From positions 23,866 to 87,865 of the forward strand of contig JAFGMD010000012.1 of assembly GCA_016927685.1 (NCBI GenBank): a stretch of 64,000 nt of DNA, read 5' to 3'. The notes beneath the pieces are model-generated. The model made no database searches, was not told where the DNA came from, and saw nothing but the letters and a program-made list of their open reading frames with translations. Both the position numbers and the translations under genes were made by a program. Of this stretch, positions 2,862 to 43,171 are shown in pieces (within the stretch, counting starts at the first letter, position 1; every line of letters begins with the position of its first letter). Source of the DNA: Candidatus Falkowbacteria bacterium (GTDB lineage Bacteria > Patescibacteriota > Patescibacteriia > CAIXNZ01).

Positions 2862-2891
2862 AAAAAAGCGGCCCGACCTCTGTCAGACCGC
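2862..2891 (-). terminator. terminator of hypothetical gene 2892..3527
   Basis: GC stem (gcgg...ccgc) with a T-run on the minus strand immediately after the stop. Confidence 0.5.
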
Positions 2892-3527: not shown

Positions 3528-3606
3528 TTTTCCCTCCTTTTTATTATCTCACCTTATCACAAAATTATTTTTTGTCAATCAGCTCTTACTAAGCTTCGGC
3601 TGGTAA

Positions 3607-3636
3607 ATAAAAAAGCGGCTTGTCGCCGCTTTTTTA
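3607..3636. terminator. bidirectional terminator (A-run, GCGGC ttgtc GCCGC, T-run)
   Basis: Perfect 6-bp GC stem flanked by aaaaaa and tttttt. Lies just downstream of the valS stop. Confidence 0.75.
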
Positions 3637-3639
3637 AGT

Positions 3640-21232: not shown

Positions 21233-21412
21233 CGAAAACCTCCTATTCAATTTTTAAAAATTGGGATGCAAGGGTTTATCACGTTTTACTTCTCCTAACC
21301 GCCTGGCAGGATTTTCAAACATTGACTAAGTCCTCACTTTTGGCTATCCCATGGTAACCATTTTGTCGATTTAACATCCTATCAAAAAAAAATAAAAATG
21401 TCAAGAGCCAAA

Positions 21413-24468: not shown

Positions 24469-25182
24469 TTATTGAGCTATTGATTGTTTAATTTTGGCAA
24501 TTAGTGTTTTAAAAGTATTATATGGGATGCCTCCGCTTAATTTATTGCCATTAATATAAAAAGTTGGAGTGCCGGTGATATTTAAAGTCAAGCCGTCTTG
24601 CATGTCTGATTTTATCTGAGAAAAATATTTTGCCTCATCAAGGCAATTATTAAAATTTGCAGAATTTAATCCCAAATTAAGTGCCAATGCCTTTAAATTT
24701 GAAGAGCTTAAATCGGTCTGATTTTCAAATAGCAGATCATGATATTCCCAAAATTTACCCTGTTCATTGGCGCATAAGGACGCCATAGCAGCTGTAAGAG
24801 CTTGGGGACTTGAAACAGGATTGGGAAAATTGCGGAAAATAATTTTCAGCGACGGGTCTTCCTCTGCGATCATTCTGACTATAAGCGCCTCTTGCTTGCA
24901 AACAGGACATTGAAAATCTCCAAATTCCACTATAACGATAGCTGCATTTTCATCGCCCAAAAAGGGGGAATCCTTCTTTTCTATAGTATCTCTTATGTTA
25001 TATGCTTGGGGTATTTTTAAAGAATTAATATTTTGACCGTTTATCTGATTTTTCGCGTCTATTAAAAAAATAATCTGGTATATTAATAACCCCGAATAAA
25101 TGAAGGCCAGTACGCAAATTATTAAAAAAATAATCCCCCACCATTTTTGGTGCCATTTTTTTTGTTTTTTTATTATAGCCAT
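24469..25182 (-). CDS. membrane-anchored DsbA-family thiol:disulfide oxidoreductase
   Basis: N-terminal TM. Thioredoxin fold with CPVC active site (FGDFQCPVCKQ). Confidence 0.8.
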   Translation of the reverse strand: MAIIKKQKKWHQKWWGIIFLIICVLAFIYSGLLIYQIIFLIDAKNQINGQNINSLKIPQAYNIRDTIEKKDSPFLGDENAAIVIVEFGDFQCPVCKQEALIVRMIAEEDPSLKIIFRNFPNPVSSPQALTAAMASLCANEQGKFWEYHDLLFENQTDLSSSNLKALALNLGLNSANFNNCLDEAKYFSQIKSDMQDGLTLNITGTPTFYINGNKLSGGIPYNTFKTLIAKIKQSIAQ

Positions 25183-27458: not shown

Positions 27459-29177
27459 ATGGTTTACAAAAAAACAAGGACTCCTTATGCCCATACACGT
27501 GGCGATAAGGACCAAAAATTGAAAATTATGGTGTTGGGCGGACTGGAAGAAGTCGGCCGCAACATGACGCTCATGGAATACGGCCAAGATATTATTATCA
27601 TTGACATGGGCCTGCAATTTCCCGAAGAAGATATGCCGGGCATTGATTATATAATCCCCAATATTTCCTATTTGAAGGGAAAAGAACGAAATATTAGGGG
27701 TGTAATTATTACTCATGGACATTATGACCACATCGGCGGTATTCCCCATATTATGCCGAAAATCGGCAATCCTATCATTTATACAGCCAGACTATCAGCT
27801 GGCATTATCCAAAAAAGACAAGAGGAATATAAAAATTCGCCTAAATTAAAATTTTATATTACTGACGAAAACAGCAAATTGCGCTTGGGCGCTTTTAATG
27901 TGGAATTTTTCCGCGTCAATCATAATGTGCCAGACAGCTTTGCCGTCGTGATTAAAACTCCGGTTGGCACCATTGTGCACACTGGTGATTTCAAAATCGA
28001 TCATAACCCTATCAATGACAGGCCAGCTGATTTGAATCGCATTGCCCAAGTCGGTTCTGAAGGCGTGACTGCTTTAATGGCGGACTCAACTAATGCTGAA
28101 GAAGAAGGTTATCAGATATCTGAAAATGTTGTAAGCGAAGAATTGGAAAGAATTTTTGAGAAAGCCAAGGGCAGGCTGATTATTGGCACATTTGCTTCCC
28201 TGCTCAACCGTGTTCAGCAAGTTATTTCTATAGCCGAACAATTCAACCGCAAAGTTATCGTGGAAGGGCGCAGTATGAAAACTAATGTGGAAATCGCCCA
28301 TAAACTCGGCTATATGAAAATTAAACCCGGCACAATATTGGAAATTGATCACTATAATCAGCGCGATTATCCGGATAACAAAGTTGTAATCGTTGGTTCT
28401 GGCGCCCAAGGTGAACAAAATGCCTTTTTAGTCAGATTTGCTGAAGACGAACATAAATACCTTTCTGTTAAAGAAGGAGATACAATTATCTTCTCTTCTT
28501 CAGTAATTCCAGGCAATGAAAGAACGGTTCAGAATCTTAAAGATACGCTGGCGCGCAAAGGTGCCAAAATTATTCACTACAAATTAATGGATGTGCATGC
28601 TGGTGGTCATGCCAAGAAAGAAGATTTAAAATTAATGCTGCGTCTGATTAAGCCAAAGCACTATATTCCCATTGAAGCCAATCATTACATGTTAAATATC
28701 AATGGTGAGATTGCTGAAAATTTAGGCATGCCTAAAGAAAATATTTTTGTCGCTGATAATGGACAGATTATTGAATTTACAAAAAAGGGAGGCAAACTCA
28801 CCAAAGAATATATTCCGGCTGATTATGTCATGGTTGATGGACTTGGCGTGGGAGATGTTTCAAACATTGTCTTGCGCGACCGCCGCGTTATGTCAGCTGA
28901 CGGCATGCTGGTAGTTATTGCTACTGTTGAATACAAAACAGGAAGATTAATTGGCAACCCAGATATTATTTCCCGCGGTTTTGTCTATATGAAGGAAAAT
29001 AAAAAACTTATTGAATCCACTAGAATGAAAGTTAAAAAAATCTGCCAGGACCATGATGCCAAATCCCCTGCTTTTGATGATTTGATAAAAAATAAGATTC
29101 GCGATGAAATTGGCCAATATTTATATCAACAGACAAAACGCCGACCCATGATATTGCCAGTAGTCATTAAAGTATAA
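27459..29177 (+). CDS. rnj: ribonuclease J
   Basis: Metallo-beta-lactamase HGHYDHIGG motif, beta-CASP and RNase J C-terminal region, 572 aa. Confidence 0.88.
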   Translation: MVYKKTRTPYAHTRGDKDQKLKIMVLGGLEEVGRNMTLMEYGQDIIIIDMGLQFPEEDMPGIDYIIPNISYLKGKERNIRGVIITHGHYDHIGGIPHIMPKIGNPIIYTARLSAGIIQKRQEEYKNSPKLKFYITDENSKLRLGAFNVEFFRVNHNVPDSFAVVIKTPVGTIVHTGDFKIDHNPINDRPADLNRIAQVGSEGVTALMADSTNAEEEGYQISENVVSEELERIFEKAKGRLIIGTFASLLNRVQQVISIAEQFNRKVIVEGRSMKTNVEIAHKLGYMKIKPGTILEIDHYNQRDYPDNKVVIVGSGAQGEQNAFLVRFAEDEHKYLSVKEGDTIIFSSSVIPGNERTVQNLKDTLARKGAKIIHYKLMDVHAGGHAKKEDLKLMLRLIKPKHYIPIEANHYMLNINGEIAENLGMPKENIFVADNGQIIEFTKKGGKLTKEYIPADYVMVDGLGVGDVSNIVLRDRRVMSADGMLVVIATVEYKTGRLIGNPDIISRGFVYMKENKKLIESTRMKVKKICQDHDAKSPAFDDLIKNKIRDEIGQYLYQQTKRRPMILPVVIKV

Positions 29178-29187
29178 TTAAATACTG

Positions 29188-29218
29188 CAAAAATCCGGCT
29201 AAAAGCCGGCTTTTTGTT
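29188..29218 (+). terminator. terminator after rnj (tccggct aaa agccggc + T-run)
   Basis: Perfect 7-bp stem followed by tttttgtttt. Confidence 0.75.
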
Positions 29219-29223
29219 TTCTA

Positions 29224-29252
29224 TTGACAAATAATAATATTTTTGTTAAAAT
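29224..29252 (+). promoter_or_regulatory. island cassette A promoter (TTGACA-N17-TAAAAT)
   Basis: The transcript starts with AGCCTATTAAA, similar to the leaders of cassettes C and D. Confidence 0.55.
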
Positions 29253-29343
29253 AGCCTATTAAAATATCAAAGTATTTTAATTTTGAATATAAGGGAATTT
29301 TGTATTTTGAAAATAAAAAACCACTGATTAAGAGGAGGGCTAG

Positions 29344-30567
29344 ATGAAAAAATGGCAAAGAAATATTCTGATCGTGTTGGCAGGCCTAATTATTGTCTTT
29401 ATGGTTTTTGCAACCATTGACAATATTGGTCAGCTTGGCTTACTTATGGGGTTTTTAAAAATTATAGCTGCTCATTGGCTGGCCGTTTCAATAGTCACTA
29501 TAGGTCTTGCTATTTGCGGAGGCCTTATCTGCCTGATTATTTGGCTCTTTCTTAAAGAAAGGGCTGAAAAAACCGAAAGGGCCGAAGAAATTCAAAATTT
29601 GCGTGAGCAGATAGAGAATTTAAAAAATCCCAAAAAAGCAGAAGATTCAGAGCAGGGCGCTATCTATTCTGAACAAGAAGAGGAAATAGGCAGTGAGGCA
29701 GAAATTCAGGTTGGAGATGAAACTCCTCCGGCACCCACAAATAAAAAGGGGCCGGCATCAAACACCTGTGATGAGCCCTCTCCTATTACTGAAGCTGGCT
29801 TTATTAACGAAATTAAGGCCTTTATCACAAAGGGTAATCGGCGTATTATCGCTATTACCTTAAGCTCCTTGATCATTCTCCTACTGCTTACGCTAGGCCT
29901 TGGCTTTGCAACTTACAAGTTCTGGCAACGCAGCAATTATTTCAAGGCACAGAGCGAGACATTGCAGGGCCTGGTAAAGTCATGCACTGACACCAATGCT
30001 TTTTACAACATTTTGAACAAGCAGCAGGAGCTTATGATGAAATTTGGCATCCCGGTGCCTGAATCAATTGATCCCAAAGAAGTGGCAAAGTGGAACGTGG
30101 ATGCCACGTTCGTAAATTTGTACTGCCAGTTCCGCAGTAACCAGATCGAGGTCAATAAAGAATACCTTGACCTTTTGCCCAAATTTCCGCAGGCACCAAA
30201 ATGTACCTGCAATATTCAGGCCTGTACTGAAGGCAAGGACGCGGTAACTGCACCACCCACTGACGAAAAACCAAAGGCAGAATGCGGCGATGGCAAATGC
30301 GAAAAAGATGTAGGTGAGAATATTAATTCTTGTCCTACAGACTGTAAGCCAAAGCATTTTTGCGGCGATGGCAAATGCAATAAGGACGAGGATAAAAATT
30401 CTTGTCCTAACGACTGCTATGAAGAAACGCCCAGCCCGCCAAAACCGGTTTGCGATGACGGCATCTGCCAGCCACAGTCAGGGGAAAATTATATCAATTG
30501 TTCTGACTGTGAAGACAATAGAGAAATCCAGCCCATGGACGTTTATCCAGGGTGCGATAATCAGTAA
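29344..30567 (+). CDS. membrane protein (3 TM, coiled coil) with C-terminal extracytoplasmic Cys-rich repeats (CGDGKCxKDxxxNSCPxDC x3)
   Basis: SD AAGAGGAGGG. Three repeats of the C-G-D-G-x-C...N-x-C-P-x-D-C module. Confidence 0.7.
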   Translation: MKKWQRNILIVLAGLIIVFMVFATIDNIGQLGLLMGFLKIIAAHWLAVSIVTIGLAICGGLICLIIWLFLKERAEKTERAEEIQNLREQIENLKNPKKAEDSEQGAIYSEQEEEIGSEAEIQVGDETPPAPTNKKGPASNTCDEPSPITEAGFINEIKAFITKGNRRIIAITLSSLIILLLLTLGLGFATYKFWQRSNYFKAQSETLQGLVKSCTDTNAFYNILNKQQELMMKFGIPVPESIDPKEVAKWNVDATFVNLYCQFRSNQIEVNKEYLDLLPKFPQAPKCTCNIQACTEGKDAVTAPPTDEKPKAECGDGKCEKDVGENINSCPTDCKPKHFCGDGKCNKDEDKNSCPNDCYEETPSPPKPVCDDGICQPQSGENYINCSDCEDNREIQPMDVYPGCDNQ

Positions 30568-30610
30568 TAACAAGGCCCTCACCATATTGGTGAGGGCCTT
30601 TTTCTTTTAC

Positions 30611-30639
30611 TTGACAAAATAAAAAAAATATACTAAAAT
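30611..30639 (+). promoter_or_regulatory. island cassette B promoter (TTGACA-N17-TAAAAT)
   Basis: ttgacaaaataaaaaaaatatacTAAAAT. Confidence 0.5.
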
Positions 30640-30688
30640 GCTTTATTCAGTATTGAATCTGTAATTTAAAACCAAGGAGGAACAAAAA

Positions 30689-31645
30689 ATGAAAAAGGTG
30701 ATTTTGGGAATTATTGTTTTCCTGACAGCACTTACGGTTTTTGCCGGGGTGCCGAACTATGCCTACAAAGATGGCCATTTCATTCCTACGCTCATTGAGA
30801 TTGACAAGACCATCGCTGGCGAGGACTTTGACCAGCTGCGTCTCAATGCGGAGAGCTTGAAAAATTGTCCTGAATGCATTGTTATTATCCAGGGAGTTGG
30901 AGAAAATCCGGGAATGAAAGCCGAAACAGTCAAGCTCTGGCTGCTCAACAACGAAAAGGTCCCTCAAAACCAGGTACGAATTTTGAAAACAGCCGGCATG
31001 CAGCCAATCAAAACCACAAACAATGGCGTGCTACTGACTATTGCCACCAAACAGGATCTGGAGGATGAAAAATTCCCAGAAAATATCTATGTAAAAAGCG
31101 AGACTGGGTATAAGCCTCTTTACGTTAAAGGCGACTGCCAACTGCTTGGCAAATTAAACGACACCCTTTACTTGATCAAACTGCTTTGTCCGGGTTTCAC
31201 CTGCGCAACTCCGGAATGTATGGAAATCGTACCCATTACGCCAACAAAACCTGACTGCAGTATTTGCAAAAACTGCCCTGAGTGCCAAAAAGGCCAAGCC
31301 GCCTACATCGAAAAATCGGACAAGGAAATCTTAAAAGATTCTTTGCTCTACTGGGGCCCGATTGGTGCCGCAGCAGGCCTAGGAGCTTCTCTCTTTTATG
31401 TGGAGGGCGCTCATGACAACAATGGCAATGGCGGAGGCAACGCTGGCATGTGCGTGAAAAAAGATGTACATGACGGCATTGAATATGACTGGGGCTGCGT
31501 TGCTCTGGTCACTGTCGGTGGTTATGCTGCTGGGGTCGGAATCGGCTATCTCGGCGAAAAAACCTATTATGTTGGCAAAGGGAATAACAAAAAAGAAGTT
31601 ACTCTTGCGCCAACAACCGGCGGTATAAAAGCAAGCTGGAAATAA
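30689..31645 (+). CDS. secreted Cys-rich protein with Gly-rich hydrophobic C-terminal tail
   Basis: Signal peptide, CPEC/CPGFTC/CSICKNCPEC clusters, and C-terminal GPIGAAAGLGASLF...GGYAAGVGIGYLG tail. Confidence 0.65.
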   Translation: MKKVILGIIVFLTALTVFAGVPNYAYKDGHFIPTLIEIDKTIAGEDFDQLRLNAESLKNCPECIVIIQGVGENPGMKAETVKLWLLNNEKVPQNQVRILKTAGMQPIKTTNNGVLLTIATKQDLEDEKFPENIYVKSETGYKPLYVKGDCQLLGKLNDTLYLIKLLCPGFTCATPECMEIVPITPTKPDCSICKNCPECQKGQAAYIEKSDKEILKDSLLYWGPIGAAAGLGASLFYVEGAHDNNGNGGGNAGMCVKKDVHDGIEYDWGCVALVTVGGYAAGVGIGYLGEKTYYVGKGNNKKEVTLAPTTGGIKASWK

Positions 31646-31748
31646 TAATCCAAACCCCGAGTCAGAAATGACTCGGGGTTTTTTCATTTATCTTAGCAAA
31701 ATAATCATTATTATATTTATAAATAGCAATACTGTTAAATAACTATCC

Positions 31749-31777
31749 TTGACAAAAACACTAACTTATGCTACAAT
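31749..31777 (+). promoter_or_regulatory. island cassette C promoter (TTGACA-N17-TGcTACAAT, extended -10)
   Basis: Shares the identical 25-mer cttatgctacaataccctattaaac with the cassette D promoter. Confidence 0.6.
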
Positions 31778-31931
31778 ACCCTATTAAACTAAATTGAATT
31801 AAGCTTTTGAAAATAGTCAAAAATCATTGACCTCTTTCAGTAGCTTAATTGGAGAAAAATCTCCATAAAAATATAGTAGGATCTTTGAAACAAGAAACAA
31901 ACCAAACATAAATTTTCCGAAGGAGGAAAAA

Positions 31932-32765
31932 ATGAAAAAAACATACGCTTCCTTTGTCGCGCTGATTTGCGCGATGTCGCTTCTGTTCGTAACCTTGATT
32001 CCGAACCAAGCTTTGGCAGCCACAAAACCGGCAGTCAATGAAGAGGCAGCGACCTCAATGATTCCCCTGAACCCGGACTGGGAAATTCAATATTTCCCGA
32101 CCGGATTCTCGACAGTCACCCGAGAGATTGAACAACAGATCCAGCCCCTGCTGGCGTGGCACAAAAGCCACCCGGAGGATATGTTCATCGTGATGGGCGC
32201 GGTGTCTGATAAACCATTCAGCAAGGATAGCGACAATAAACAGATGCAGTTGGCCACGGACCGGGCAATGGCTGTTCATAAGTATCTTACGGACAATGCA
32301 GTGCCGAAGAACAAAATCGTCATTCTGAAGTCCAATATGATTGCCATTGAAAAAGGCAACTATCGAAAAAATCAAAAGGTAATGGTATGGCATGCATATC
32401 ATCCCGAGCTATCTTCGACGCCATTGGTTACCGAAAATAAGCCATGTCCGCCTCAGCAGGAATGTCCAGTGCCAAAGTGCGACAAGTGCGATAAAGCACC
32501 GAATTACATCGTCAATGTACCGCCCCAATGCACCAAAGAGGAGTCGGATGTGATTGATCCTATCACCGGCATCCGGACCATCACAATCAACGTGACTTGC
32601 CCTGACGAGGTGCAAAAGGAAATGTGGTGCAAAGCTCATAAAGGCGCTTGCACGGCACTGATCATCGGCGGAATCGTCCTCATCGGAGGCATTTTGGCCA
32701 TTGGCTGCGCCCAGGGCGCCAGCGGACCCAATGGGTCCGGCGGTGATGCGGGTTTCTGTTTTTAA
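31932..32765 (+). CDS. secreted Cys-rich protein with C-terminal TM/Gly-rich tail
   Basis: Signal peptide, CPPQQECPVPKCDKCDK cluster, and C-terminal ALIIGGIVLIGGILAIGCAQGASGPNGSGG tail. Confidence 0.65.
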   Translation: MKKTYASFVALICAMSLLFVTLIPNQALAATKPAVNEEAATSMIPLNPDWEIQYFPTGFSTVTREIEQQIQPLLAWHKSHPEDMFIVMGAVSDKPFSKDSDNKQMQLATDRAMAVHKYLTDNAVPKNKIVILKSNMIAIEKGNYRKNQKVMVWHAYHPELSSTPLVTENKPCPPQQECPVPKCDKCDKAPNYIVNVPPQCTKEESDVIDPITGIRTITINVTCPDEVQKEMWCKAHKGACTALIIGGIVLIGGILAIGCAQGASGPNGSGGDAGFCF

Positions 32766-32868
32766 CCATCCTAAGCTACTTAACCGGGTATACATTCGTG
32801 TGTACCCGGTTTTTCTTATATAAAATATGCTGAAATTAGCATAATTTTAATAATTAAGTTAACCACTC

Positions 32869-32897
32869 TTGACAAAATCATTTTCTTATGCTACAAT
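32869..32897 (+). promoter_or_regulatory. island cassette D promoter (TTGACA-N17-TGcTACAAT)
   Basis: Same promoter/leader block as cassette C. Confidence 0.6.
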
Positions 32898-33008
32898 ACC
32901 CTATTAAACCTGTAAAAGGTTTTCAATGAAATATATAGGCAATTAGTTGTTTGCGAGATAAAGGGTCTTTTAAAACAAAATTCCAAAATTGGAAAAGGAG
33001 AAGATAAA

Positions 33009-33833
33009 ATGAAAAAGATAATGATGGCTCTTTTGGTTTCTTTGTCCGTGGTTTTCGCGGCCTGCGAAGGCGGCGACTACAATGATCACTCCTCCCATGA
33101 CTACGACCCCGATGAAATCTGCGGCAACGGCGTCTGCGGCAATGGTGAAACCCACCAGAATTGCCCGGCTGACTGCGACGCAGATTCTGAGCCGGTCTGT
33201 GGCAATGGGATCTGCGAAAATGGCGAGAATGAGAGAAACTGCTTTGAGGATTGCGGCACCACGCCCTGCACCGACGCCAATGAGAACGGCGTCTGTGATG
33301 ATGCCGAATATATCGGCATCTATTGCTACAGCAATACGGAGCTGGACGCAATCTATGGCGACACTGTCCACTATGGACAGTTTAGCTCGCCAAGCGAAAC
33401 TCCTGGAGTATGGGAGGCAGAAAACGATGTCCCTGGATTCATCGAATCTGGCGACACGATTTGCTTCACTACTCCGAGGCCATTGCCCGAGGTAGAGCAC
33501 GGCTATGAGTCACTCTACGCTGATGTGACAGCAGGGCCGTTTTCAGCCGGACAATGGATAGGTTTCAGTGTGGCACCAAAAAGCATTAACGTCCTCAGGG
33601 GCAACACCATCACATCTCGACCGATTCTGCCCTACTTCGCCGGGATGGGCTATCATGCCTGTCTTGACGAAGAGCAACCGCTATGTTGGACCAACCTATG
33701 CACGATCAGCGCAAGCGGTGTCTGGACCTGCTACGATGACGGCGTCCCCGACAGCGAATGCGGTTTGACAAAAACTTGCCAGACCTGCGTTCTGCACTGC
33801 CGGGAACTCTACAACATTTTGCTCTCCCCCTGA
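33009..33833 (+). CDS. lipoprotein with CGNGxCxNGEnxxNCPxDC repeats and a C-terminal domain paralogous to the C-terminus of the 34151 gene
   Basis: Lipobox VFAAC followed by EGGDYND, compared with AACKGGNYND in the next gene. Shared C-terminal signature YCYSN...GMGYHACLDEE versus WCYTSP...GSGYFVCLTDD. Confidence 0.7.
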   Translation: MKKIMMALLVSLSVVFAACEGGDYNDHSSHDYDPDEICGNGVCGNGETHQNCPADCDADSEPVCGNGICENGENERNCFEDCGTTPCTDANENGVCDDAEYIGIYCYSNTELDAIYGDTVHYGQFSSPSETPGVWEAENDVPGFIESGDTICFTTPRPLPEVEHGYESLYADVTAGPFSAGQWIGFSVAPKSINVLRGNTITSRPILPYFAGMGYHACLDEEQPLCWTNLCTISASGVWTCYDDGVPDSECGLTKTCQTCVLHCRELYNILLSP

Positions 33834-34150
33834 ATTTTTGCCTATCAAAGGCCCGCGTACTGAAAAAGTACCCGGGCCTTTTTCTTTTCTAGAAAAACCT
33901 AATTTATTTCATCAAATAAAACAACTTGACAAATCCTAAAAATATGCTAAGATATGCTATTCTGAAAAAGTAAAGGAAATTCAGGGATAATAGCCCTATT
34001 TTATATAGAAACAGGTGTTTTGTTGGCTCATTAAAATAAAATCAAAAAACCCTCTAAATTGAGGGTGAGGAGGAAAAAATGGAACTATGGGTTTCAAAGG
34101 AAACGTGCCATAATGGCAATAAAAAAAATGACCAAAAGGAGGTCAAAAAA

Positions 34151-37100
34151 ATGAAGAGAACAATCACGGCTTTTGTCATTTGCATGATCATGCTGACACT
34201 TGCAGCCTGCAAGGGCGGCAACTACAATGACAATTCTGGATCAGGTGGAGCCAATACTCCTCCGACAGTTGTCATTAATACGCCAAACGAGGACGAGACC
34301 TTTTTGCCGGATTCTGACATCAATATCAGGGCCCATGCAACAGACAATGGGACCGTCGCCAGAATCGTGATTCTCCAAGGCGAAACCGTCTTGTGCAGGA
34401 ATGATGCCTTTACTTTGAATTGCACCTGGGAAGATGTGCCGGCTGGGCATTATACTCTGGTTGCCATTGCCACGGATAATGAAGGCGCAACCGGATCTGA
34501 CACTGTTCGAATTTTTGTTGGCAATGCACCTCCGGGCACAAACCTTCCGCCAGAAGTGACTATTACTTCACCTGCAGACGGAACAGATTATCCGGCACCA
34601 GCGAACTTCACGGTCATGGTTTATGCCACCGACCCTGATGACCTAGTTGCTTCAGTGCAATTCTGGATTGATGACACTCCATTGGGAACAGACAATACAA
34701 CGCCATACAGCCTAGATGTAACAGATTTGCCAGCTGGCAGATATGTGCTTTGGGCAGAGGCAACTGATAGCCGAGGAGCAACGGGAATTTCACAGCTGGT
34801 TGTTATCGAAGTCGGTAATATATCGCCTCTTGATAACACTCCGCCTGTGATCACTATTGTTTCCCCAGCTAACGGAGCCAATTATCAGGCTCCAGCGAAC
34901 TTCAATGTCGGCGCAGTAGCTATTGATGCAGACGGCGACGCTATCGCTAGCGTTGATTTAATGCAAGGAACAACTACCTTGGCAACCTTAACCGCAGAAC
35001 CTTACGTTTTCTCAATCAATAACTTGCCCATTGGCACCTATGTGTTTTGGGGCAGAGCAACTGATGTCTATGGAGCGCAAGGTATTTCTGAACCGGTTAC
35101 TGTGAGCGTTACAAACACGCCGCTGGTTGCCAATAATCCGCCAAATGTTTTGGTTACTTCCCCAGCGGATGGCGCTACTTACATCGCACCAGCCAACTTC
35201 AATATCACAGCTGAAGCAGTAGACACGGATGGCGACTTAATTGCCAGCGTAACATTCTTGATTAACGGCACAGTTTTGGGAACAGACAATACTGCTCCCT
35301 ATTCTGTACCTGTCACCAACTTGCCCATAGGTAACTATGTTATCTATGCCCGGGCAATTGACGCGCGTGGAGCTGTGGGGATTTCCCAACTTATTAGTGT
35401 TCATGTCGGAACAGTCTCTCCCACAGCTAACACTCCCCCAACCGTGGTCATGGTCAGCCCAGCAGACGGCGCCACTTACACGGCACCGACCAACATACAA
35501 GTTGGTGCTATTGCTTCTGACCCAGATGGCGATGCCATTACTCATGTTGAATTGATGCAGGGGAACACTCTTCTACTCACTGACACAACTGCGCCTTACA
35601 ACATATCAATTACCAACTTGCCCGCTGGAACTTATGTTTTTTGGGCAAGAGCAATTGATTCGCGCGGAGCATCTGCTATTTCGCAGCTTGTCAGAATCAG
35701 AGTGTACAACCCCACACCAGCCATAAACAATCCACCACGCGTCATTGTGGTTTCTCCAGCTGATGGTGCCACATACACAGCACCGGCAAGCTTGAGTGTC
35801 ACGGCTTACGTGACTGACCCGGATGGTGATGCGATTGGACAAGTTGAGCTGTTACAAGGTGGAACAGTCATAGGCACGTTTAATTCAGCGCCCTATACTG
35901 TCGTTTTGAACAATCTCACGGCAGGCAACTATGTTTTTTGGGCTCGTGGGACTGATGCTCGTGGAGCAACCGGTGTATCACAGCTCGTGCAAATACGAGT
36001 TGGCAATCCTACACCAGCCATAAATATCCCGCCAAATGTCATTTTAACCTCGCCTGGCGATGGAGTCAGCTATGTAGCCCCGGCTAATTTCAATGTCGGA
36101 GCAGACGTAGTAGATTCTGATGGCGACATCATCACCCAGGTCGAGCTTATGCAGGGAAATACGGTTTTGGTCATTGACACAACGGCACCTTATACTCTGC
36201 CAATCACCAACCTGCCAGTAGGTAACTATACTTACTGGGCCAGGGCAACTGATAGCAGGGGCGGGGTCGGCGTTTCTCAATTGGTCAGAATCACTGTTGT
36301 GGCAGCACCTCCAGTCGTTAATAATCCGCCGTTAGTGATTATCACTTCTCCGGCAGACGGTGCCACTTATCTGGCACCGGCGAACTTCACTGTCACGGCA
36401 ATTGCCACGGATTCGGACAACGACGCAATTGTATCGGTTACGTTTATGAATGGGAACACGGTTTTAGGAACAGATATTTCTGCTCCTTTCTCTGTGCCCA
36501 TTGTTAACCTGCCGATTGGCAATTACGTCATTTACGCCCAAGCAACAGATGCGAGGGGCGCTGTGGGTACTTCTCAATTAATCAACATTTTCGTTGGAAA
36601 TGTATCACCCACTATCAATAACCCGCCTATTGTGGTTATTGTCTCTCCGTTTGATGGCGCTACTTATACTGCGCCGGCTGACTTTATTGTCAGTGCCTTT
36701 GTGAATGACCCGGATGGTGATGCCATTACCGGCGTTGAATTTTTGATGGGAAGCACAGTACTTGGAGTGGATAATACCGCTCCGTACGATGTTTCAGTCA
36801 CAAATTTGGCGGCTGGAAATTACGTTCTCTGGGCCAGGGCAACTGATAACCGCGGTGCGGTTGGTATGTCCCAATTGGTAACAATCCATGTTGGGAGCTT
36901 GCCACCTTCGGTTAATAATGATCCTCTGGTAATTCTGGTTTCGCCAGCTAATGGAGCCAATTATGTAGCGCCAGCTGACTTTTACGCGCAAGCGCTCGTA
37001 ATTGATCCGGATGGCGATGCCATTATCCAAGTGGAATTCTTAGTTGGTAATGATGTGGTGGCAGTTGATTCAACAGCACCATTCACAATGCCGGTCAAAC

Positions 37101-37762
37101 TCAGGTCCGCAGGTCTTTATACTGTGTGGGCCAGGGCGACTGACAGCAGAGGCGGTATTGGAATGTCCGAAATCGTCTCTGTGAATGTTACACAGCCGAT
37201 TCCCAATGCTTTGGTCTGGTGCTACACCAGTCCGCCGGCTAATACGATGGGACAGGCTGCCAGCCTTGATCCAAATTCAGGACCTGACACAGGAGCCTGG
37301 ATTCCTTATCGAGATTTGGCAGTTGATGGTTCTGGTTGCGTATCCATTGCCCAAGTTGATGGGAGAATCCCCTACATTTGGGTAGATGGCACATACGGAC
37401 CAGCAGCCGATGGACTTTGGTTTGGCGCCAGCATTCCGCCGAACGAAATCTGGGTGGATGGCGTAGCTTACACTACGATCCAATTCTTCCCATATGTCGT
37501 CGGCATTGGTTCTGGTTACTTTGTCTGCTTGACTGATGATTGCGGCTTGCAATCTGGTTATGGCCACATTCTTATCCAGCTGTTTACGGACGCTGATAAG
37601 GATGGCACGCCAAATATCAGTGATAATTGCATGATATACGCAAATGATCAGCTGGACAGCAATGGTGACGGAGTGGGAGATGCCTGCGATGGCCGCGACA
37701 GCGACAACGATGCTTATCGCGACTATGACGATGCTTATCCCAACAATCCTCTTTTACACTAG
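34151..37762 (+). CDS. giant surface lipoprotein: 11 tandem ~95-aa Ig-like (Big-type) repeats, C-terminal domain, Asp-rich Ca-binding (TSP3-like) repeats
   Basis: AGGAGG SD before MKRTITAFVICMIMLTLAAC. Repeat consensus PPxVxIxSPADGATYxAPANFxVxAxAxDxDGDxIxxVExxxGxTVLGTDxTAPYSVxVTNLxxGNYVxWARATDxRGAxGxSQLVxIxVG. C-terminus DSNGDGVGDACDGRDSDNDAYRDYDD. The ORF track's upstream in-frame ATG at 34079 is a less likely start. Confidence 0.75.
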   Translation: MKRTITAFVICMIMLTLAACKGGNYNDNSGSGGANTPPTVVINTPNEDETFLPDSDINIRAHATDNGTVARIVILQGETVLCRNDAFTLNCTWEDVPAGHYTLVAIATDNEGATGSDTVRIFVGNAPPGTNLPPEVTITSPADGTDYPAPANFTVMVYATDPDDLVASVQFWIDDTPLGTDNTTPYSLDVTDLPAGRYVLWAEATDSRGATGISQLVVIEVGNISPLDNTPPVITIVSPANGANYQAPANFNVGAVAIDADGDAIASVDLMQGTTTLATLTAEPYVFSINNLPIGTYVFWGRATDVYGAQGISEPVTVSVTNTPLVANNPPNVLVTSPADGATYIAPANFNITAEAVDTDGDLIASVTFLINGTVLGTDNTAPYSVPVTNLPIGNYVIYARAIDARGAVGISQLISVHVGTVSPTANTPPTVVMVSPADGATYTAPTNIQVGAIASDPDGDAITHVELMQGNTLLLTDTTAPYNISITNLPAGTYVFWARAIDSRGASAISQLVRIRVYNPTPAINNPPRVIVVSPADGATYTAPASLSVTAYVTDPDGDAIGQVELLQGGTVIGTFNSAPYTVVLNNLTAGNYVFWARGTDARGATGVSQLVQIRVGNPTPAINIPPNVILTSPGDGVSYVAPANFNVGADVVDSDGDIITQVELMQGNTVLVIDTTAPYTLPITNLPVGNYTYWARATDSRGGVGVSQLVRITVVAAPPVVNNPPLVIITSPADGATYLAPANFTVTAIATDSDNDAIVSVTFMNGNTVLGTDISAPFSVPIVNLPIGNYVIYAQATDARGAVGTSQLINIFVGNVSPTINNPPIVVIVSPFDGATYTAPADFIVSAFVNDPDGDAITGVEFLMGSTVLGVDNTAPYDVSVTNLAAGNYVLWARATDNRGAVGMSQLVTIHVGSLPPSVNNDPLVILVSPANGANYVAPADFYAQALVIDPDGDAIIQVEFLVGNDVVAVDSTAPFTMPVKLRSAGLYTVWARATDSRGGIGMSEIVSVNVTQPIPNALVWCYTSPPANTMGQAASLDPNSGPDTGAWIPYRDLAVDGSGCVSIAQVDGRIPYIWVDGTYGPAADGLWFGASIPPNEIWVDGVAYTTIQFFPYVVGIGSGYFVCLTDDCGLQSGYGHILIQLFTDADKDGTPNISDNCMIYANDQLDSNGDGVGDACDGRDSDNDAYRDYDDAYPNNPLLH

Positions 37763-37782
37763 TTCTTTGTAACACATTTGTA

Positions 37783-37818
37783 ACACAAGGGCTTGCGCAA
37801 CTGCGCAAGCCCTTTTTC
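37783..37818 (+). terminator. terminator after giant lipoprotein gene (gggcttgcgca ac tgcgcaagccc + T-run)
   Basis: 11-bp stem followed by tttttctttt. The same cctttttctttt tail follows cassettes A and D. Confidence 0.8.
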
Positions 37819-37870
37819 TTTTCCAAAATTAAACTTTACAGAAAGCCAAAATCTAAGTAAAATAAAATAT

Positions 37871-38860
37871 ATGACTACAAAAAATAAACAAATAGTTTTA
37901 TCGGGCATACAGCCGACTGGCGAACTCCATATTGGCAATTATTTGGGCTCGCTGAAAAATTTTATAGAGCTGCAGGACAAATATCAATGTTATTTTTTTC
38001 TGGCAACTTATCATTCAATTACAGAAAATTACAATCCCAAAGAAAAGCATAAACAAGTTTTAGATTTGGCTGCAACGTATTTAGCAGCAAAACTTGATCC
38101 TAAAAAATGCATTATTTTTGACCAAGCAGATGTGCCAGCATGCACAGAATTAGCCTGGATTTTTAATAGTATTACACCTATTAATGAATTAGAAAGAATG
38201 ACCCAGTATAAAGATAAAGCTGCTAGGCAAATTAAAAATATTAATACTGGTCTTTTTGATTATCCTGTTTTACAAGCAGCTGACATTTTACTTTATCATG
38301 CCAACTTTGTACCGGTTGGCGCTGACCAATTACAGCACTTGGAATTGACTAATGAAATTGTCAGATGGTTTACCAATAAATTTGGAGAATATTTTCAACC
38401 CATTAAACCTCTGCTAACAAAAATGCCAAAAGTCATGTCCCTTATTGAGCCGGATAAAAAAATGAGTAAAAGTTTGGGTCCCTCGCATTATATTGCCATA
38501 AATGATGAACCGGATATTATTTTAGCCAAACTAAAAAAGGCAGTGACCGGCATGGGTACTGAAGAACAAATTCCAGCTGGCGCTCAAAATTTAATGACTC
38601 TGCTTTCGGAATTTGGCACAAAAGAAGATGTGGTTTATTTTGAAAATCAGATAAAAAATAAAACTATTAAATATTTTGAGCTTAAAGAAAAGCTGGCTAA
38701 AAATATTAGTGATTACTTTGCTGATTATCGAGCTAAATATAAAGAATTACAGGATAAGCCAGATTATATTGAAAAAGTGCTTAAACAAGGCGCTAAAGAG
38801 GCCCAAAAGGTTGCGCAAAAGACTATAAAAGAGGTTAAGGAATTAATTGGCGTGGCCTAA
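37871..38860 (+). CDS. trpS: tryptophanyl-tRNA synthetase
   Basis: Start at MTTKNKQIVLSGIQPTGELHIGNYLG (HIGH region). The ORF-track start at 37793 adds a non-conserved extension that overlaps the upstream terminator. Confidence 0.88.
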   Translation: MTTKNKQIVLSGIQPTGELHIGNYLGSLKNFIELQDKYQCYFFLATYHSITENYNPKEKHKQVLDLAATYLAAKLDPKKCIIFDQADVPACTELAWIFNSITPINELERMTQYKDKAARQIKNINTGLFDYPVLQAADILLYHANFVPVGADQLQHLELTNEIVRWFTNKFGEYFQPIKPLLTKMPKVMSLIEPDKKMSKSLGPSHYIAINDEPDIILAKLKKAVTGMGTEEQIPAGAQNLMTLLSEFGTKEDVVYFENQIKNKTIKYFELKEKLAKNISDYFADYRAKYKELQDKPDYIEKVLKQGAKEAQKVAQKTIKEVKELIGVA

Positions 38861-38904: not shown

Positions 38905-39308
38905 ATCTAAATGCCAAATATGCAGATGATCGCTACTCCGTAGCTTTAGCGAAGGAGTAGAGGAAAGTCCGGACACTGAAAGCGGTAGTGGGTAACGCCC
39001 ACCGGCTTAATAGCAATATTAAGTCAGGACCAGTACCACAGAGACAATACTACCCCGCTTCGCGGGGGAAAGGTGAAAAGTGTTTTGAGGTTTTTGTTCT
39101 CGAGACAAAAGCGACAAAACTCAGCTCCTGGCAACAGGAAGCTTGTGGCAAACTCTACCTGGTGCAAGGACAAACTTATTTCTGGCAATGCTGGAAATAA
39201 TGACAAGTAGTCCGCATGAGCTTAGCAGTAATGTTAAGCCTAGATAGATGATCATCACCCGACTCAGGTCGAGGCACAAAATCCGGCTTACATATTTGGC
39301 ATTTAGAT
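38905..39308 (+). ncRNA. rnpB: RNase P RNA (bacterial type A)
   Basis: P1 pairs 38905-38921 with 39292-39308. Universally conserved GAGGAAAGTCCGGAC, GGGTAACGCC and ACAAAATCCGGCTTAC elements. Internal ORFs 38988..39200 (+) and 39024..39206 (-) are artefacts. Confidence 0.92.
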
Positions 39309-39354: not shown

Positions 39355-40785
39355 ATGAAAAAAACAGGATTAATTTTCACAATCTTACTTGTACCTATTG
39401 ATTTTCTAATGTTGGTTTTGGCAGCAGTTTCTGCCTACTATTTACGCGTCGGTTCTCTTGTTGCCGAAATCAGACCCGTTATTTATACACTTAAATTAAG
39501 CGAATATTTAAGCTATGCTTTTTTAGTTGCCATAATTTGGTTGATAATTTTTGCCTTAGCCGGTCTATATCGCATTGGTAGGCCAAAACTAAATGAAGAA
39601 ATTGCTAAAATATTCCTGGCTTGCTCAACTGGCATATTGACAATAATTGTGGCCATCTTCTTGCAAAGAGAATTGTTTTCTTCTCGCTTCATAATTTTAG
39701 CGGCTTGGGCCTTTGCCGTTATTTATGTAACTATTGGCCGCATAATTATTTTTGAAATACAAAAATCTTTATTAATGAAAGGTGTCGGTGCTATAAATAT
39801 CATTTTAATTGGCAATGATAAAAATACTCAAATAATCGCAGAAGAATTCAAGCAAAATCCTAAGCTTGGCTACAACATCATAAGAATATTTCCGACTTTT
39901 AATGAACAAATTAAGCGGGAAATTATTAATCTGAAAAAAACAGAAGAAATTGACGAAATTGTTCAGGCTGACCCAAATTTAAATAGGCAAATTACGCTTG
40001 ATTTAATTACCTTTACAGAAGAAAATCATATTATTTTTAAATTTTCAGCTGATATATATCAAACCAGAACAAGCCGTTTGGCCATTGATACTATGGCTGG
40101 TATGCCGATTTTTGAAATTAAAAAAACCAAGCTTGAGGGCTGGGGCTGGATTTATAAAAGAATTTTTGACATTATTGGTTCAATAATTTTAATAATCCTC
40201 ACCTTCCCGCTAATGTTGCTTGCTGCAGTAGCCATTAAAATAGATAGTAAGGGTCCAATCTTTTATAAAAATAAAAGGGTGGGACAACGCGGCAAAGAAT
40301 TTGAACTCTTTAAATTCCGTTCCATGTATTATGAAATGAGCACGGGTGTGGGTAGCCCAGAACAACAGAAAAAATCCTTAGAATACGAACAAAAATTAAT
40401 TGAAGAGAAAAATACTAGACCAGGAGCGGTTTATAAAATTGGCGAAGACCCAAGGGTTACAAGAGTGGGAAAATTTATTAGAAAATATTCTATTGATGAA
40501 TTGCCTCAATTTTTTAATGTTTTAATCGGCCAAATGAGCTTAGTTGGCCCTAGGCCACATCAGCCCAGAGAAGTCGCTCAATATCAAAAAGCTCAATATC
40601 ATTTGCTAGATATAAAACCTGGCGTAACAGGCATGGCTCAAATTTCTGGTCGCTCTGATCTGCAATTTGACGAGGAAGCTAAGCTAGATACATATTATAT
40701 AGAAAATTGGTCTATTTGGCTTGATTTAAGAATAATTTTAAGAACTCCCATTGTTGTACTTTGGCCAAAAAGAAAAGCATTATAA
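39355..40785 (+). CDS. undecaprenyl-phosphate sugar phosphotransferase (WbaP/CpsE-like bacterial sugar transferase)
   Basis: N-terminal multi-TM region. C-terminal catalytic region LVGPRPHQPREV...KPGVTGMAQISGRSDL. Confidence 0.85.
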   Translation: MKKTGLIFTILLVPIDFLMLVLAAVSAYYLRVGSLVAEIRPVIYTLKLSEYLSYAFLVAIIWLIIFALAGLYRIGRPKLNEEIAKIFLACSTGILTIIVAIFLQRELFSSRFIILAAWAFAVIYVTIGRIIIFEIQKSLLMKGVGAINIILIGNDKNTQIIAEEFKQNPKLGYNIIRIFPTFNEQIKREIINLKKTEEIDEIVQADPNLNRQITLDLITFTEENHIIFKFSADIYQTRTSRLAIDTMAGMPIFEIKKTKLEGWGWIYKRIFDIIGSIILIILTFPLMLLAAVAIKIDSKGPIFYKNKRVGQRGKEFELFKFRSMYYEMSTGVGSPEQQKKSLEYEQKLIEEKNTRPGAVYKIGEDPRVTRVGKFIRKYSIDELPQFFNVLIGQMSLVGPRPHQPREVAQYQKAQYHLLDIKPGVTGMAQISGRSDLQFDEEAKLDTYYIENWSIWLDLRIILRTPIVVLWPKRKAL

Positions 40786-40883
40786 AGCTAAAATATTGCG
40801 AAAAACAGCCAAAAACAAAGGTTGTTTTTTATTTAATCAATAAACTTGAAATTAGGGCGAAGATAAGATAAAATAAAAGCACT

Positions 40884-41981
40884 ATGAGGGTTGCTTTATT
40901 ACATGATTATCTTAATCAAGCGGGTGGCGCTGAACGGGTATTAATGGCGCTTACAGAATTATTTCCCGAAGCTCCTATTTACACGCTAATCTATGACAAA
41001 AAAAGATTGGCTGGTTTTGAAAATAAAAAAATTAAAACTTCTTTTTTACAAAAATTGCCCTTTGCTGCTTCGAAAATAAAATATTATTTGCCAATAATGC
41101 CTATTGCGGTTGAACAATTGAATCTTGGCAATTATGATCTAGTAATTTCTTCAACCTCTGCCCTTATTAAAGGCGTTATTACTCCCCCGCACACGCTGCA
41201 TATTTGCTATTGCCATACCCCAACCAGATATCTTTGGAGCGACACACATTCTTATCCTAAAGATATTAAAGTGGGCTCAATAGTTAAAAATATTTTGCCT
41301 TTTATGCTGACAAAATTGCGCCAATGGGATCATCATGCGGCTCAGCGCGTCAATCACTTTATTGCTAATTCGCATTTTATAGCCAGCCGCATTAAAAATT
41401 ATTATCATCGCGATAGCGAAGTCATTTATCCACCCGTTGATACGCAAAATTTTTATATTACCAATCAGCTTGGCAATTATTACCTTATAATATCCCGCCT
41501 GCGACCATATAAAAAAGTCGATATGGCCATCAGCGCTTTTAACAAATTAAATCTGCCCTTAAAAATTATTGGTACGGGCGAAGAAGAGGCAAGTTTAAGA
41601 AAAATGGCTAAATCTAATATAGAATTTTTGGGTGCTGTTTCTGAAGAAATAAAAAGAAAATACCTGTCTAACTGTTTAGCCCTAATTCATCCCCAAGAAG
41701 AAGATTTTGGTTTAACTGCTATAGAAGCCATGGCTTCTGGCAGGCCTGTCATCGCCTATGGCAGAGGAGGCGCCTTAGAAACAGTTATTGACGGCAAGAC
41801 CGGAAAATTATTTGATGAACAAAGTTGGGAGGCCTTAATAGATACTATTATCAAATTCAAACCCAACGAATATAATTCCTTTGAAATAAAAAAGCATTCG
41901 GAAAATTTTGACACGGAAAATTTTTACAAGCATATGAGGGAATTTGTCGAAAAATCATACCGCCAATTTAAAAATAGCTAA
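40884..41981 (+). CDS. glycosyltransferase family 4
   Basis: EDFGLTAIEAMASGRPVIA motif. Confidence 0.8.
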   Translation: MRVALLHDYLNQAGGAERVLMALTELFPEAPIYTLIYDKKRLAGFENKKIKTSFLQKLPFAASKIKYYLPIMPIAVEQLNLGNYDLVISSTSALIKGVITPPHTLHICYCHTPTRYLWSDTHSYPKDIKVGSIVKNILPFMLTKLRQWDHHAAQRVNHFIANSHFIASRIKNYYHRDSEVIYPPVDTQNFYITNQLGNYYLIISRLRPYKKVDMAISAFNKLNLPLKIIGTGEEEASLRKMAKSNIEFLGAVSEEIKRKYLSNCLALIHPQEEDFGLTAIEAMASGRPVIAYGRGGALETVIDGKTGKLFDEQSWEALIDTIIKFKPNEYNSFEIKKHSENFDTENFYKHMREFVEKSYRQFKNS

Positions 41982-41989
41982 ATTTTTTT

Positions 41990-43135: not shown

Positions 43136-43171
43136 TCTAATCCTTAATTTTATATTTCTAATTTATTCTTT

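Follow-up and report, generated by a model that had tools for sequence, protein, structure and literature searches.

A block of five genes on contig JAFGMD010000012.1 of a Candidatus Falkowbacteria bacterium (GenBank assembly GCA_016927685.1) is best read, with moderate confidence, as an old cell-envelope gene block of one Falkowbacteria-like Patescibacteria sub-clade that encodes an anchored surface assembly. We analysed the block within a window of 64,000 nucleotides (positions 23,866 to 87,865 of the forward strand), to which all coordinates refer. The block, hereafter the island, spans positions 29188-37818, and its five plus-strand open reading frames (ORFs; A to E) occupy 29344-37762, with the RNase J gene (rnj) on one side and trpS on the other (Table 1). 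This is the layout proposed in a first-pass annotation made from the letters alone, and the ORFs, the family match of trpS (PF00579) and the placement of the RNase P RNA gene (rnpB) confirmed it. The block would have been inserted between rnj and trpS in the ancestor of the sub-clade and inherited there since, each gene acting as its own transcription unit with a sigma-70 promoter, a strong Shine-Dalgarno (SD) sequence and an intrinsic terminator. Protein A would have three transmembrane (TM) segments and an ectodomain ending in four-cysteine modules. B and C would be paralogous type I membrane proteins whose OmpA-like domains hold the peptidoglycan, and the lipoproteins D and E would present one rare beta-sandwich, D on two Cys modules and E on ten Big_7 repeats, followed in E by TSP3-like repeats. 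The Cys modules may serve as disulfide spacers, oxidised by a nearby DsbA-like protein, and the terminal domain as the ligand-binding part, perhaps for a glycan of a partner cell or of a surface. In the genomes compared, promoters, anchors and the ends that hold the signal peptide or TM segment are conserved, while the parts encoding ectodomains are replaced or diverge fast.

The composition of the island departs from that of its surroundings. The GC content is 0.462 inside the island versus 0.345 across the remaining window, and the 1-kb profile climbs from 0.38 (29-30 kb) to 0.50 (33-34 kb) before falling to 0.35 (38-39 kb). From A to E, gene GC is 0.436, 0.466, 0.505, 0.539 and 0.493, and GC at third codon positions (GC3) is 0.45, 0.50, 0.59, 0.63 and 0.45, compared with a GC3 of 0.37 in rnj, 0.27 in trpS and mostly 0.20-0.39 in the remaining window ORFs of at least 150 aa, with a background value of about 0.29. 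GC1, GC2 and GC3 are all elevated in the island genes, with GC2 moving from about 0.30 to 0.37-0.48. The six spacers within and at the edges of the block are AT-rich (GC only 0.25-0.33), and thus the shift is restricted to the reading frames. The rise from about 40 to 55% GC that the first-pass annotation had gauged by eye is real (ORFs at 0.44-0.54), although the background lies at about 34.5% rather than 30%. As that annotation had also presumed, neither GC nor codon usage is uniform across the region.

A scan for RNase J in one genome per species returned 80 loci, the nearest of which come from Falkowbacteria and Patescibacteria metagenome-assembled genomes. In ten of them (L005, L006, L008, L016, L053, L058, L070, L071, L077 and L081) trpS comes immediately after rnj or no more than about 650 nt later, and in three (L014, L060 and L072) the gap is 1-2 kb. 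The two genes are 5-9 kb apart in the four closest genomes (L002, L003, L004 and L007; rnj 80-91% identical). Three metagenome contigs (L082, L087 and L089) likewise have the island block, as L083 probably does. Presence is not patchy: every relative with at least 80% rnj identity carries the block, and in relatives of the window lineage below about 77% identity rnj adjoins trpS and the block is absent. All carriers keep the same order, a TM protein with a Cys-rich end, one or more OmpA-like proteins and lipoproteins ending in TSP3-like repeats, and all show the same contrast in composition, with ORF GC3 of 0.41-0.71 versus 0.29-0.40 in the flanks and AT-rich spacers. We found no integrase, transposase, flanking direct repeats or adjacent tRNA among the ORFs, repeats and RNA genes of the window. 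PADLOC and PHROG scans gave no link to defence or phage; there was no annotated PHROG match, and the sole PADLOC match was a weak MotB-like similarity in C. The first-pass annotation had asked whether trpS directly follows rnj in related genomes, which is the case in at least ten more distant ones, and had reasoned that the same genes at the same place with normal composition would indicate core surface machinery; eight relatives share the site, yet their genes are GC-rich. Its proposal of an acquired or rapidly evolving module survives as an insertion relative to the ancestral gene order and as fast evolution, and fails as a recent acquisition in view of the eight relatives, their saturated synonymous sites, the native promoters and the lack of mobility genes in the window. 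By these comparisons the island appears to be an old, clade-specific insertion kept vertically under native control signals and not a fresh acquisition. An ancient transfer into the ancestor of the clade is possible and compatible with this reading.

Each gene carries its own expression signals. We scored promoters as matches to the 12 positions of TTGACA-N17-TAnAAT on both strands of the 64 kb. Sites with 11 of 12 matches lie at 29224, 30611, 31749 and 32869, that is, 40-180 nt 5' of A, B, C and D, and gene E has a 10/12 site at 33926. Only 12 sites in the whole window score at least 11/12; four of them are in the island and one precedes rnpB. The similar promoter of rnpB identifies the island promoters as the organism's normal type, supplied one per gene rather than one per operon. 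In six genomes, every island gene has its own TTGACA(A/T)..-N-..TAnnnT promoter, which in most cases reads TTGACAAA..TGCTAnnAT. Further, the 42-nt promoter block of C and D is nearly invariant in three genomes and at both paralogous positions, though the D proteins are just 38-42% identical. GGAGG-type SD sequences lie upstream of all five starts, and all five genes end in GC-rich hairpins of 12-14 bp followed by T-runs (-20.1 to -24.7 kcal/mol, z of -6 to -8). The cassette organisation described at first pass (promoter, strong SD and hairpin terminator for each gene) therefore stands, as does the common tail on three of the five terminators: with 0.08 occurrences expected in the 64 kb, CCTTTTTCTTTT is found exactly three times, behind A, D and E. 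We rejected this tail as a defining element, because it is found at some island terminators of L003, L004 and L089 and not in L002 or L082. An Rfam search of 29100-38000 at a permissive threshold returned sub-threshold matches on the terminator hairpins only and no known leader or riboswitch in the 5' untranslated regions of 105-200 nt. Signals of this kind suggest that A to E are highly expressed. The B-C spacer also contains a minus-strand 11/12 promoter-like site (31710-31738), directed at the bidirectional B terminator and with no ORF downstream, which may be a chance match in AT-rich DNA.

Table 1. Features of the island and its flanks (window coordinates).
Feature	Position	Strand	Description
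DsbA/thioredoxin-fold membrane-anchored protein	24469-25182	-	PF13462 97 bits, PF01323 67 bits; outside the island
RNase J gene (rnj)	27459-29177		Upstream flank; 93%-identical L082 orthologue has Lactamase_B, RNase_J_b_CASP and RNase_J_C
Promoter of A	29224-29252	+	TTGACA-N17-TAAAAT, TG ahead of the -10 hexamer
Gene A	29344-30567	+	407 aa; TM-like segments aa 7-25, 48-66, 168-186; charged linker; C-terminal ectodomain of ~220 aa
Cys modules of A	30283-30510	+	C-terminal: CGDGKCEKDVGENINSCPTDC, CGDGKCNKDEDKNSCPNDC, degenerate CDDGICQPQSGENYINCSDC
Terminator of A	30572-30608	+	13-bp stem, -24.7 kcal/mol, tail CCTTTTTCTTTT
Promoter of B	30611-30639	+	
Gene B	30689-31645	+	318 aa; signal peptide, OmpA-like domain (from the profile match with C), Cys-rich linker and a hydrophobic, Gly-rich C-terminal region containing GGNAGMC
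Terminator of B	31652-31687	+	13-bp stem, -23.2 kcal/mol
Promoter block of C	31747-31789	+	~42 nt, CTTGACAAAA...CTTATGCTACAATACCCTATTAAAC
Gene C	31932-32765	+	277 aa; signal peptide followed by OmpA-like domain, Cys-rich linker, TM helix (aa 242-260) and tail GPNGSGGDAGFCF
OmpA-like domain of C	32091-32324 (aa 54-131)	+	PF00691
Terminator of C	32782-32816	+	13-bp stem, -20.1 kcal/mol
Promoter block of D	32867-32909	+	86% identity over 50 nt with the C block
Gene D	33009-33833	+	274-aa lipoprotein, lipobox VFAAC; C-terminal Cys-containing domain 33267-33830, core common with E
Cys modules of D	33120-33176 and 33198-33254	+	Two 4-Cys modules
Terminator of D	33847-33888	+	-22.8 kcal/mol, tail CCTTTTTCTTTT
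Promoter of E	33926-33953	+	TTGACA-N16-TAAGAT
Gene E	34079-37762	+	Lipoprotein; 1227 aa (ATG 34079) or 1203 aa (ATG 34151); Cys20 of the short form closes the lipobox LTLAAC
Stalk of E	34259-37216	+	Ten Big_7 Ig-like repeats of 96-99 aa each
Terminal beta-sandwich domain of E	37217-37555	+	Core common with D; very rare family
Asp-rich TSP3-like repeats of E	37556-37759	+	C-terminal; DADKDG..., DSNGDG..., DSDNDAYRDYDD
Terminator of E	37787-37822	+	12-bp stem, -23.3 kcal/mol, tail CCTTTTTCTTTT
trpS	37871-38860		Downstream flank; PF00579 match
RNase P RNA (rnpB)	38914-39303		After trpS

As first annotated, each product has a signal peptide, a lipobox or a TM anchor, and all five are predicted to be membrane-anchored and extracytoplasmic. 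Protein A matched no curated family above threshold in Pfam or NCBIfam. Its NCBI name, 'phage holin', was rejected because PF07332 scores 22.1 bits against a cut-off of 28.4, no holin model passes and there is no PHROG match; the JGI name of its homologue P0007, 'pseudopilin PulG', was rejected because no pilin model passes. A word-indexed search of 5.8 billion clusters recovered nine proteins for A, three of them full-length, and the Cys-rich end of the protein is predicted to face outside and the basic N-terminus inside. The profile of the B family, which comprises only B and one other 90%-identity cluster in the same search, matches that of the C family with an hhalign probability of 99.7% over 283 columns. 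The parts of the two proteins come in the same order, and B and C are thus paralogues. Against the PDB, the C-family profile aligned with chains of Pal, MotB and OmpA at E values of about 3e-4. As to the residues by which OmpA domains bind (Asp of GxxD, Asn, and Arg of LSxxRA), the Arg (R111) is invariant in the family, as are L107 and A108; the Asp is present in the window protein (VSDK), and the Asn spacing differs. In the C-terminal tail, the G, N, G, G, D, G and C positions of GPNGSGGDAGFCF are invariant in five genomes. Together, B and C could tie the membrane to the wall. The L002 locus contains in addition a truncated duplicate of C (5268-5768), whose 166 aa are 81% identical to the complete copy in L002 and which has a conserved promoter block to itself, pointing to duplication and decay inside the island.

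The lipoproteins D and E differ in their stalks and share a terminal domain. D is identical to the NCBI hypothetical protein JW977_01375 and is represented by five proteins in the word-indexed search. The lipobox reads LAAC in E and FAAC, atypical at -3, in D, and a conserved GG(D/N)YN follows the Cys in both. Ten stretches of E match PF17957 (Big_7) with 351.4 bits in total against a threshold of 24.1. The repeats are 60-76% identical in DNA and Tandem Repeats Finder called no array in E, consistent with an old, diverged Ig array. The first-pass annotation had counted 11 Ig repeats of about 95 aa followed by Asp-rich Ca-binding repeats; the array and the Asp-rich motifs hold, the count is ten, of 96-99 aa, and the TSP3 match is sub-threshold (PF02412, 21.0 bits against a cut-off of 25). 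DxDxDG-type motifs are visible in E, its homologue P0022 scores 32.1 bits with the same model, and the TSP3-like repeats of E probably bind Ca2+. The start of E is ambiguous, with two in-frame ATGs that each have a strong SD. In the L003 and L083 orthologues, the SD and the start codon line up with ATG 34079, and a similar N-terminal extension was called in the homologue P0004. ATG 34151 comes after a 72-nt insertion unique to this genome and yields a classical MKRT... lipoprotein signal.

The terminal domain of D and E has the common core CY...GQ...W...D.T.G...W.G...P.SI.V.G...GY..CL, and when 1.84 billion representative clusters were searched exhaustively with a HMMER profile, it turned up in about 13 proteins. 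Two homologues exchange one stalk for the other: in P0004, which is of D type, a Big_7 repeat replaces the Cys modules, and P0021 has nine Cys modules ahead of an E-type domain. The stalk type is thus interchangeable, which supports a spacer role for the Cys modules. Ig stalks also vary in length, from 2 to at least 10 repeats in P0024, P0029 and P0017. AlphaFold2 (AF2) modelling, suggested at first pass for both lipoproteins, succeeded for the terminal domain of E. Based on an alignment of 16 sequences, it was modelled as a nine-strand beta-sandwich with block-mean pLDDT values of 84-95 over most of residues 10-117, with the TSP3 tail at low confidence; the model of D was poor. A Foldseek search with the E domain model returned nothing significant in PDB or viral models, and a scan of viral contigs returned no relative of the E tail. 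The model portrays a generic sandwich that matches no recognised family, with at most a hint of glycan binding.

The Cys modules of A (two strict CGDGKC...CPxDC modules and a degenerate third) and D (two) contain four Cys each; their repetition was recognised at first pass, when six Cys were counted per module. In the HMMER search of the representative clusters, about 100 further proteins matched through their Cys modules only, with up to 22 modules each. Most modules (427/524) are exactly 19 residues long, with the consensus CGNGxCExGETxxxCPxDC. Proteins that bear them, P0025, P0027 and P0091 among others, also carry trypsin, Calx-beta, NosD/beta-helix and Kazal domains and are labelled as archaeon, Deltaproteobacteria, Myxococcales or plain 'bacterium'. 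The arrays, including those of the 22-copy proteins, have no match in Pfam, NCBIfam or PDB. The family searches proposed at first pass thus placed the E repeats in Big_7 and left the Cys repeat outside curated families and TSP3 below its cut-off. Literature searches on the motif text and on surface proteins, lipoproteins or Ig-like adhesins of the Candidate Phyla Radiation (CPR) found nothing on this locus. We infer that the modules are disulfide-bonded spacers. The DsbA-like protein encoded 4 kb upstream of the island suggests that the organism can form extracytoplasmic disulfides, and this protein could plausibly oxidise the Cys-rich ectodomains. Its gene adjoins a POR subunit gene and has an Opp-type solute-binding protein gene and rnj downstream, a neighbourhood also found in L082, there with SecG.

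The claim of rapid evolution made at first pass is borne out by comparison with the relatives. Between the window and L002, rnj is 91% and trpS 77% identical, versus 45% for A, 55% for B, 72% for C and 38% for D. Nonsynonymous divergence (dN) is 0.2-0.66 in the island and 0.04-0.16 in the flanks, a 4-12x excess, and overall protein identities are 30-70% and 77-93%, respectively. The divergence is also uneven among genes. Between L002 and L082 (rnj 95%), B (89%) and D' (92%) are well conserved, whereas A (48%), C (48%) and D (68%) are not, and the window C is nearer to the C of L002 (72%) than to that of L082 (46%). The DNA of L002 and L082 aligns at 82-84% except in the ectodomain parts of A and C, where 45-210 nt at the 5' end and 70-130 nt at the 3' end are still alignable. 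We read this mosaic as probable replacement of alleles through recombination between conserved ends; a local acceleration of divergence is a possible alternative. Conserved ends joined to changing ectodomains fit a surface under selection for variation. In the nearest relative (L089, trpS 90% identical), E is collinear, has all ten repeats and is 82% identical overall, with 93-98% identity in the terminal domain and TSP3 part, 73-89% in the stalk repeats, and a dN/dS ratio (omega) of 0.03-0.12. This indicates a constrained, functional protein whose head is its most conserved part, and E is under purifying selection relative to L089. Within the island no tandem repeats were called, no long identical repeats or switch elements of a phase-variable locus (homopolymer or simple-repeat tract, invertible segment, silent copies) were found, and the 50-nt promoter block is the only sequence common between genes.

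The GC excess of the reading frames extends to synonymous codon choice. Compared with the rest of the window, the island favours the C- or G-ending member of two-fold codon families (TTC, 0.48 vs. 0.12; TAC, 0.44 vs. 0.15; AAC, 0.40 vs. 0.14; CAG, 0.55 vs. 0.27) and shifts Ile and Leu codons likewise (ATC, 0.37 vs. 0.12; ATA, 0.09 vs. 0.26; TTA, 0.10 vs. 0.43), while Ala and Gly codon choice is unshifted. Amino acid usage differs as well (Lys, 3.8 vs. 10.6%; Pro, 7.2 vs. 3.6%; Cys, 3.0 vs. 0.7%). Synonymous sites are saturated between all genome pairs, the window and L089 included (proportion of synonymous differences, pS, 0.6-0.8), and E, which is inherited vertically, nonetheless has a GC3 of 0.45-0.46 in both beside trpS at 0.27-0.29. 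The GC3 excess is thus maintained and not left over from a recent transfer. The genes rank A<B<C<D in GC3 in the window (0.45, 0.50, 0.59 and 0.63), in L002 (0.41, 0.50, 0.56 and 0.59) and in L082 (0.49, 0.57, 0.65 and 0.67), and this recurrent order points to a per-gene equilibrium. Other envelope genes (those for DsbA, the Opp solute-binding protein and TM proteins) and the likely highly expressed pyruvate:ferredoxin oxidoreductase genes have normal GC3. The unevenness of the shift among codon families leans towards codon-level selection over a uniform bias; on the other hand, G-ending codons gain for Lys, Gln and Glu and CGC loses, which is not what translational selection classically produces.

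A more speculative proposal, which we consider doubtful, would join these observations in a distinct surface-variation system. The conserved AT-rich promoter blocks, along with the ends that encode signal peptides and anchors, would act as homology arms, ectodomain segments would be exchanged between lineages, and a gene-specific force would hold the ORFs 15-40 GC3 points above the genome. Separately, the 19-residue module would be a widespread, not yet described spacer domain of bacteria and archaea. If the proposal were true, candidates for the force would be GC-biased repair of recombining segments and selection on codons linked to very high expression, and the A<B<C<D order, which persists even between alleles 40-50% identical, would report expression or recombination rate. 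P0021 was at one time taken to show that the GC shift follows the gene family in AT-rich genomes (GC 0.59 beside genes of 0.32-0.34 in L084). We withdrew it because the neighbour gene and spacers in L085 are GC-rich too, and its source is probably a GC-rich diderm or a chimeric contig. In the 5.4-kb contig L084, which contains the homologue P0021, GC falls abruptly from about 0.59 to 0.32-0.34 between 1-1900 and 1926-5408, with an outer-membrane-protein-like gene on the GC-rich side. The drop either marks the edge of an island in a different organism or stems from chimeric assembly.

Elsewhere in the window, the ORFs at 16904-17530 (-) and 20759-21250 (-) stand out by a raised GC3 of 0.46 and 0.53, respectively; both are without a Pfam match, and neither is obviously secreted. 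The former sits behind an 11/12 promoter at 17686 and the latter has a 42%-identical relative encoded in L004; they may form another small patch of atypical composition. The ORF at 16178-16792 (-) encodes a 204-aa protein with a signal peptide, a GC3 of 0.38 and no Pfam match, and it has no relative among the fetched loci. Immediately downstream of trpS and rnpB, genes for an initiating sugar transferase of the WbaP-like kind and for three glycosyltransferases of GT4 type follow at 39355-44293 (+), in the same order in L087. The island thus adjoins a surface-glycan synthesis cluster.

Several observations weigh against the envelope-block interpretation or narrow it. The OmpA assignment is marginal in C (PF00691, 28.8 bits against a cut-off of 27.2), B by itself has no match to this family, and a mean pLDDT of 50.5 makes the AF2 model of D unreliable. 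High expression is read from the strength of the signals, and other window genes behind 11/12 promoters keep a normal GC3. Synonymous divergence (dS) is saturated in every pair, including that with L089, so the rates do not demonstrate positive selection. E is conserved in L089, and 'hypervariable' therefore fits the gene content and alleles across species and not every gene. Finally, the GC3 excess is not accounted for by the envelope-block explanation.

What the assembly would do is a separate matter. Its lipid anchors, Ig stalk, terminal domain and Asp-rich repeats make adhesion to a partner or host cell the leading, plausible guess. Alternatively, the same proteins could be a structural envelope scaffold, with B and C as wall tethers and D and E spacing or organising the wall or an S-layer, and with divergence arising from weak constraint on spacers or from phage-receptor pressure. 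We think this the less probable reading, though one to be taken seriously: it accommodates the OmpA-like tethers, the very strong expression signals and the surface-glycan genes immediately downstream, and it fits the distribution of variability in E, which is highest in the stalk repeats and not in the terminal domain. Furthermore, attachment of cultivated Patescibacteria is reported to proceed via type IV pili, so that a further adhesin is not required. Yet a layout of anchor, stalk and terminal domain with variable stalk length is typical of adhesins, the best-conserved part is the terminal domain, as expected of a binding head, and neither the PHROG and PADLOC scans nor the scan of viral contigs for the E tail gave a phage link.

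Two further explanations address the composition. A recent horizontal acquisition from a GC-richer donor, whose unameliorated signature would be the GC excess, agrees with the elevation of all three codon positions, the broken rnj-trpS adjacency and the extreme rarity of the families (5 D, 2 B and 3 full-length A clusters among 5.8 billion), and P0021, a distant homologue that combines Cys modules, terminal domain and TSP3 repeats in a GC-rich block by an outer-membrane-protein-like gene, could represent a donor type. We regard it as improbable, since a foreign signature would have decayed in eight relatives that share site, order and GC excess at saturated synonymous divergence. The vertical inheritance of E in L089 (GC3 of 0.46 vs. 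0.29 in trpS), the native promoter type in AT-rich spacers and the lack of mobility genes, direct repeats and an adjacent tRNA in the window speak against it as well. That the composition is a by-product of amino acid content (rich in Gly, Ala, Pro, Cys, Thr and Val and poor in Lys, Ile and Phe) in ordinary core envelope machinery is very improbable. The rise in GC2 and the strongly different amino acid usage are in its favour, but synonymous codon usage shifts too, and GC3 and the codon tables refute amino acid content as the sole cause; other envelope genes have normal GC3, and members of the window lineage whose rnj identity is less than about 77% lack the block.

Read as an old, anchored envelope block, the locus provides a bounded set of candidate surface proteins in one environmental clade of the ultrasmall Patescibacteria, whose means of recognising and holding partners are largely unknown beyond type IV pili. 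It also offers a clear evolutionary signature, in which the site is fixed, the control regions are conserved and the ectodomains are replaced, a rare terminal domain as a candidate for binding, and, in a GC3 excess that survives saturating synonymous divergence in an AT-rich genome, a natural case for studying what sets local base composition in bacteria besides mutation bias.

The vlp and vsa loci of Mycoplasma contain variable surface lipoprotein genes. The island resembles them in its adjacent genes for membrane-anchored surface proteins, with their own promoters, conserved 5' regions and divergent external parts, and in belonging to a small-genome, wall-dependent or host-dependent bacterium. 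Unlike them, it lacks homopolymer tracts and invertible elements, encodes four architectures and has raised ORF GC, and its variation is seen between species and not shown within a clone. E shares with the Lig proteins of Leptospira, other Ig-repeat adhesins and RTX adhesins, which have an extender and a ligand-binding end, a lipobox, a long run of Ig repeats, a non-repeat terminal domain and probable Ca2+ sites. It differs in that its repeats are Big_7 and not Big_2, it has no type I secretion (T1SS) signal and its terminal domain has no recognisable relative. Its best NCBIfam match, Leptospira OmpL47, reaches 39.9 bits against a cut-off of 250, and an outer membrane is presumed missing in the island organism, as in Patescibacteria generally. 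C likewise recalls the OmpA_C domains of Pal, MotB and YiaD, passing PF00691 and, through its family profile, aligning to Pal and MotB over about 95 residues that include L-A-x-x-R-A. It departs from these in the N-terminal position of the domain, the C-terminal membrane anchor, the Cys-rich linker and the conserved G-x-N-G-x-G-G-D-x-G-x-C tail, and its scores are marginal. The Myxococcus-type Cys-rich repeat (DUF4215/TIGR02232) also consists of short tandem modules starting with CGNG in secreted proteins, and some carriers of the present module are Myxococcales or Deltaproteobacteria; that model, however, matches neither A, D nor the 22-copy proteins, and the consensus here is 19 residues.

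Free-living bacteria such as SAR11 and Prochlorococcus have hypervariable islands of surface functions between core genes. The block in the window similarly occupies a fixed site between core genes, with surface content that differs sharply among close relatives, but it is made of protein cassettes with conserved promoters and not mainly of glycosyltransferases, and its GC lies above that of the genome and not below. The hypervariable surface-protein gene described for a Gracilibacterium (PMC6851277) differs from the island in that its hypervariation lies in nucleotide-level repeats within one gene. The locus is of a known kind, that of variable surface-protein loci and Ig-repeat adhesins, and what it adds to the libraries searched is a very rare terminal domain and an uncurated, widespread 19-residue Cys module.

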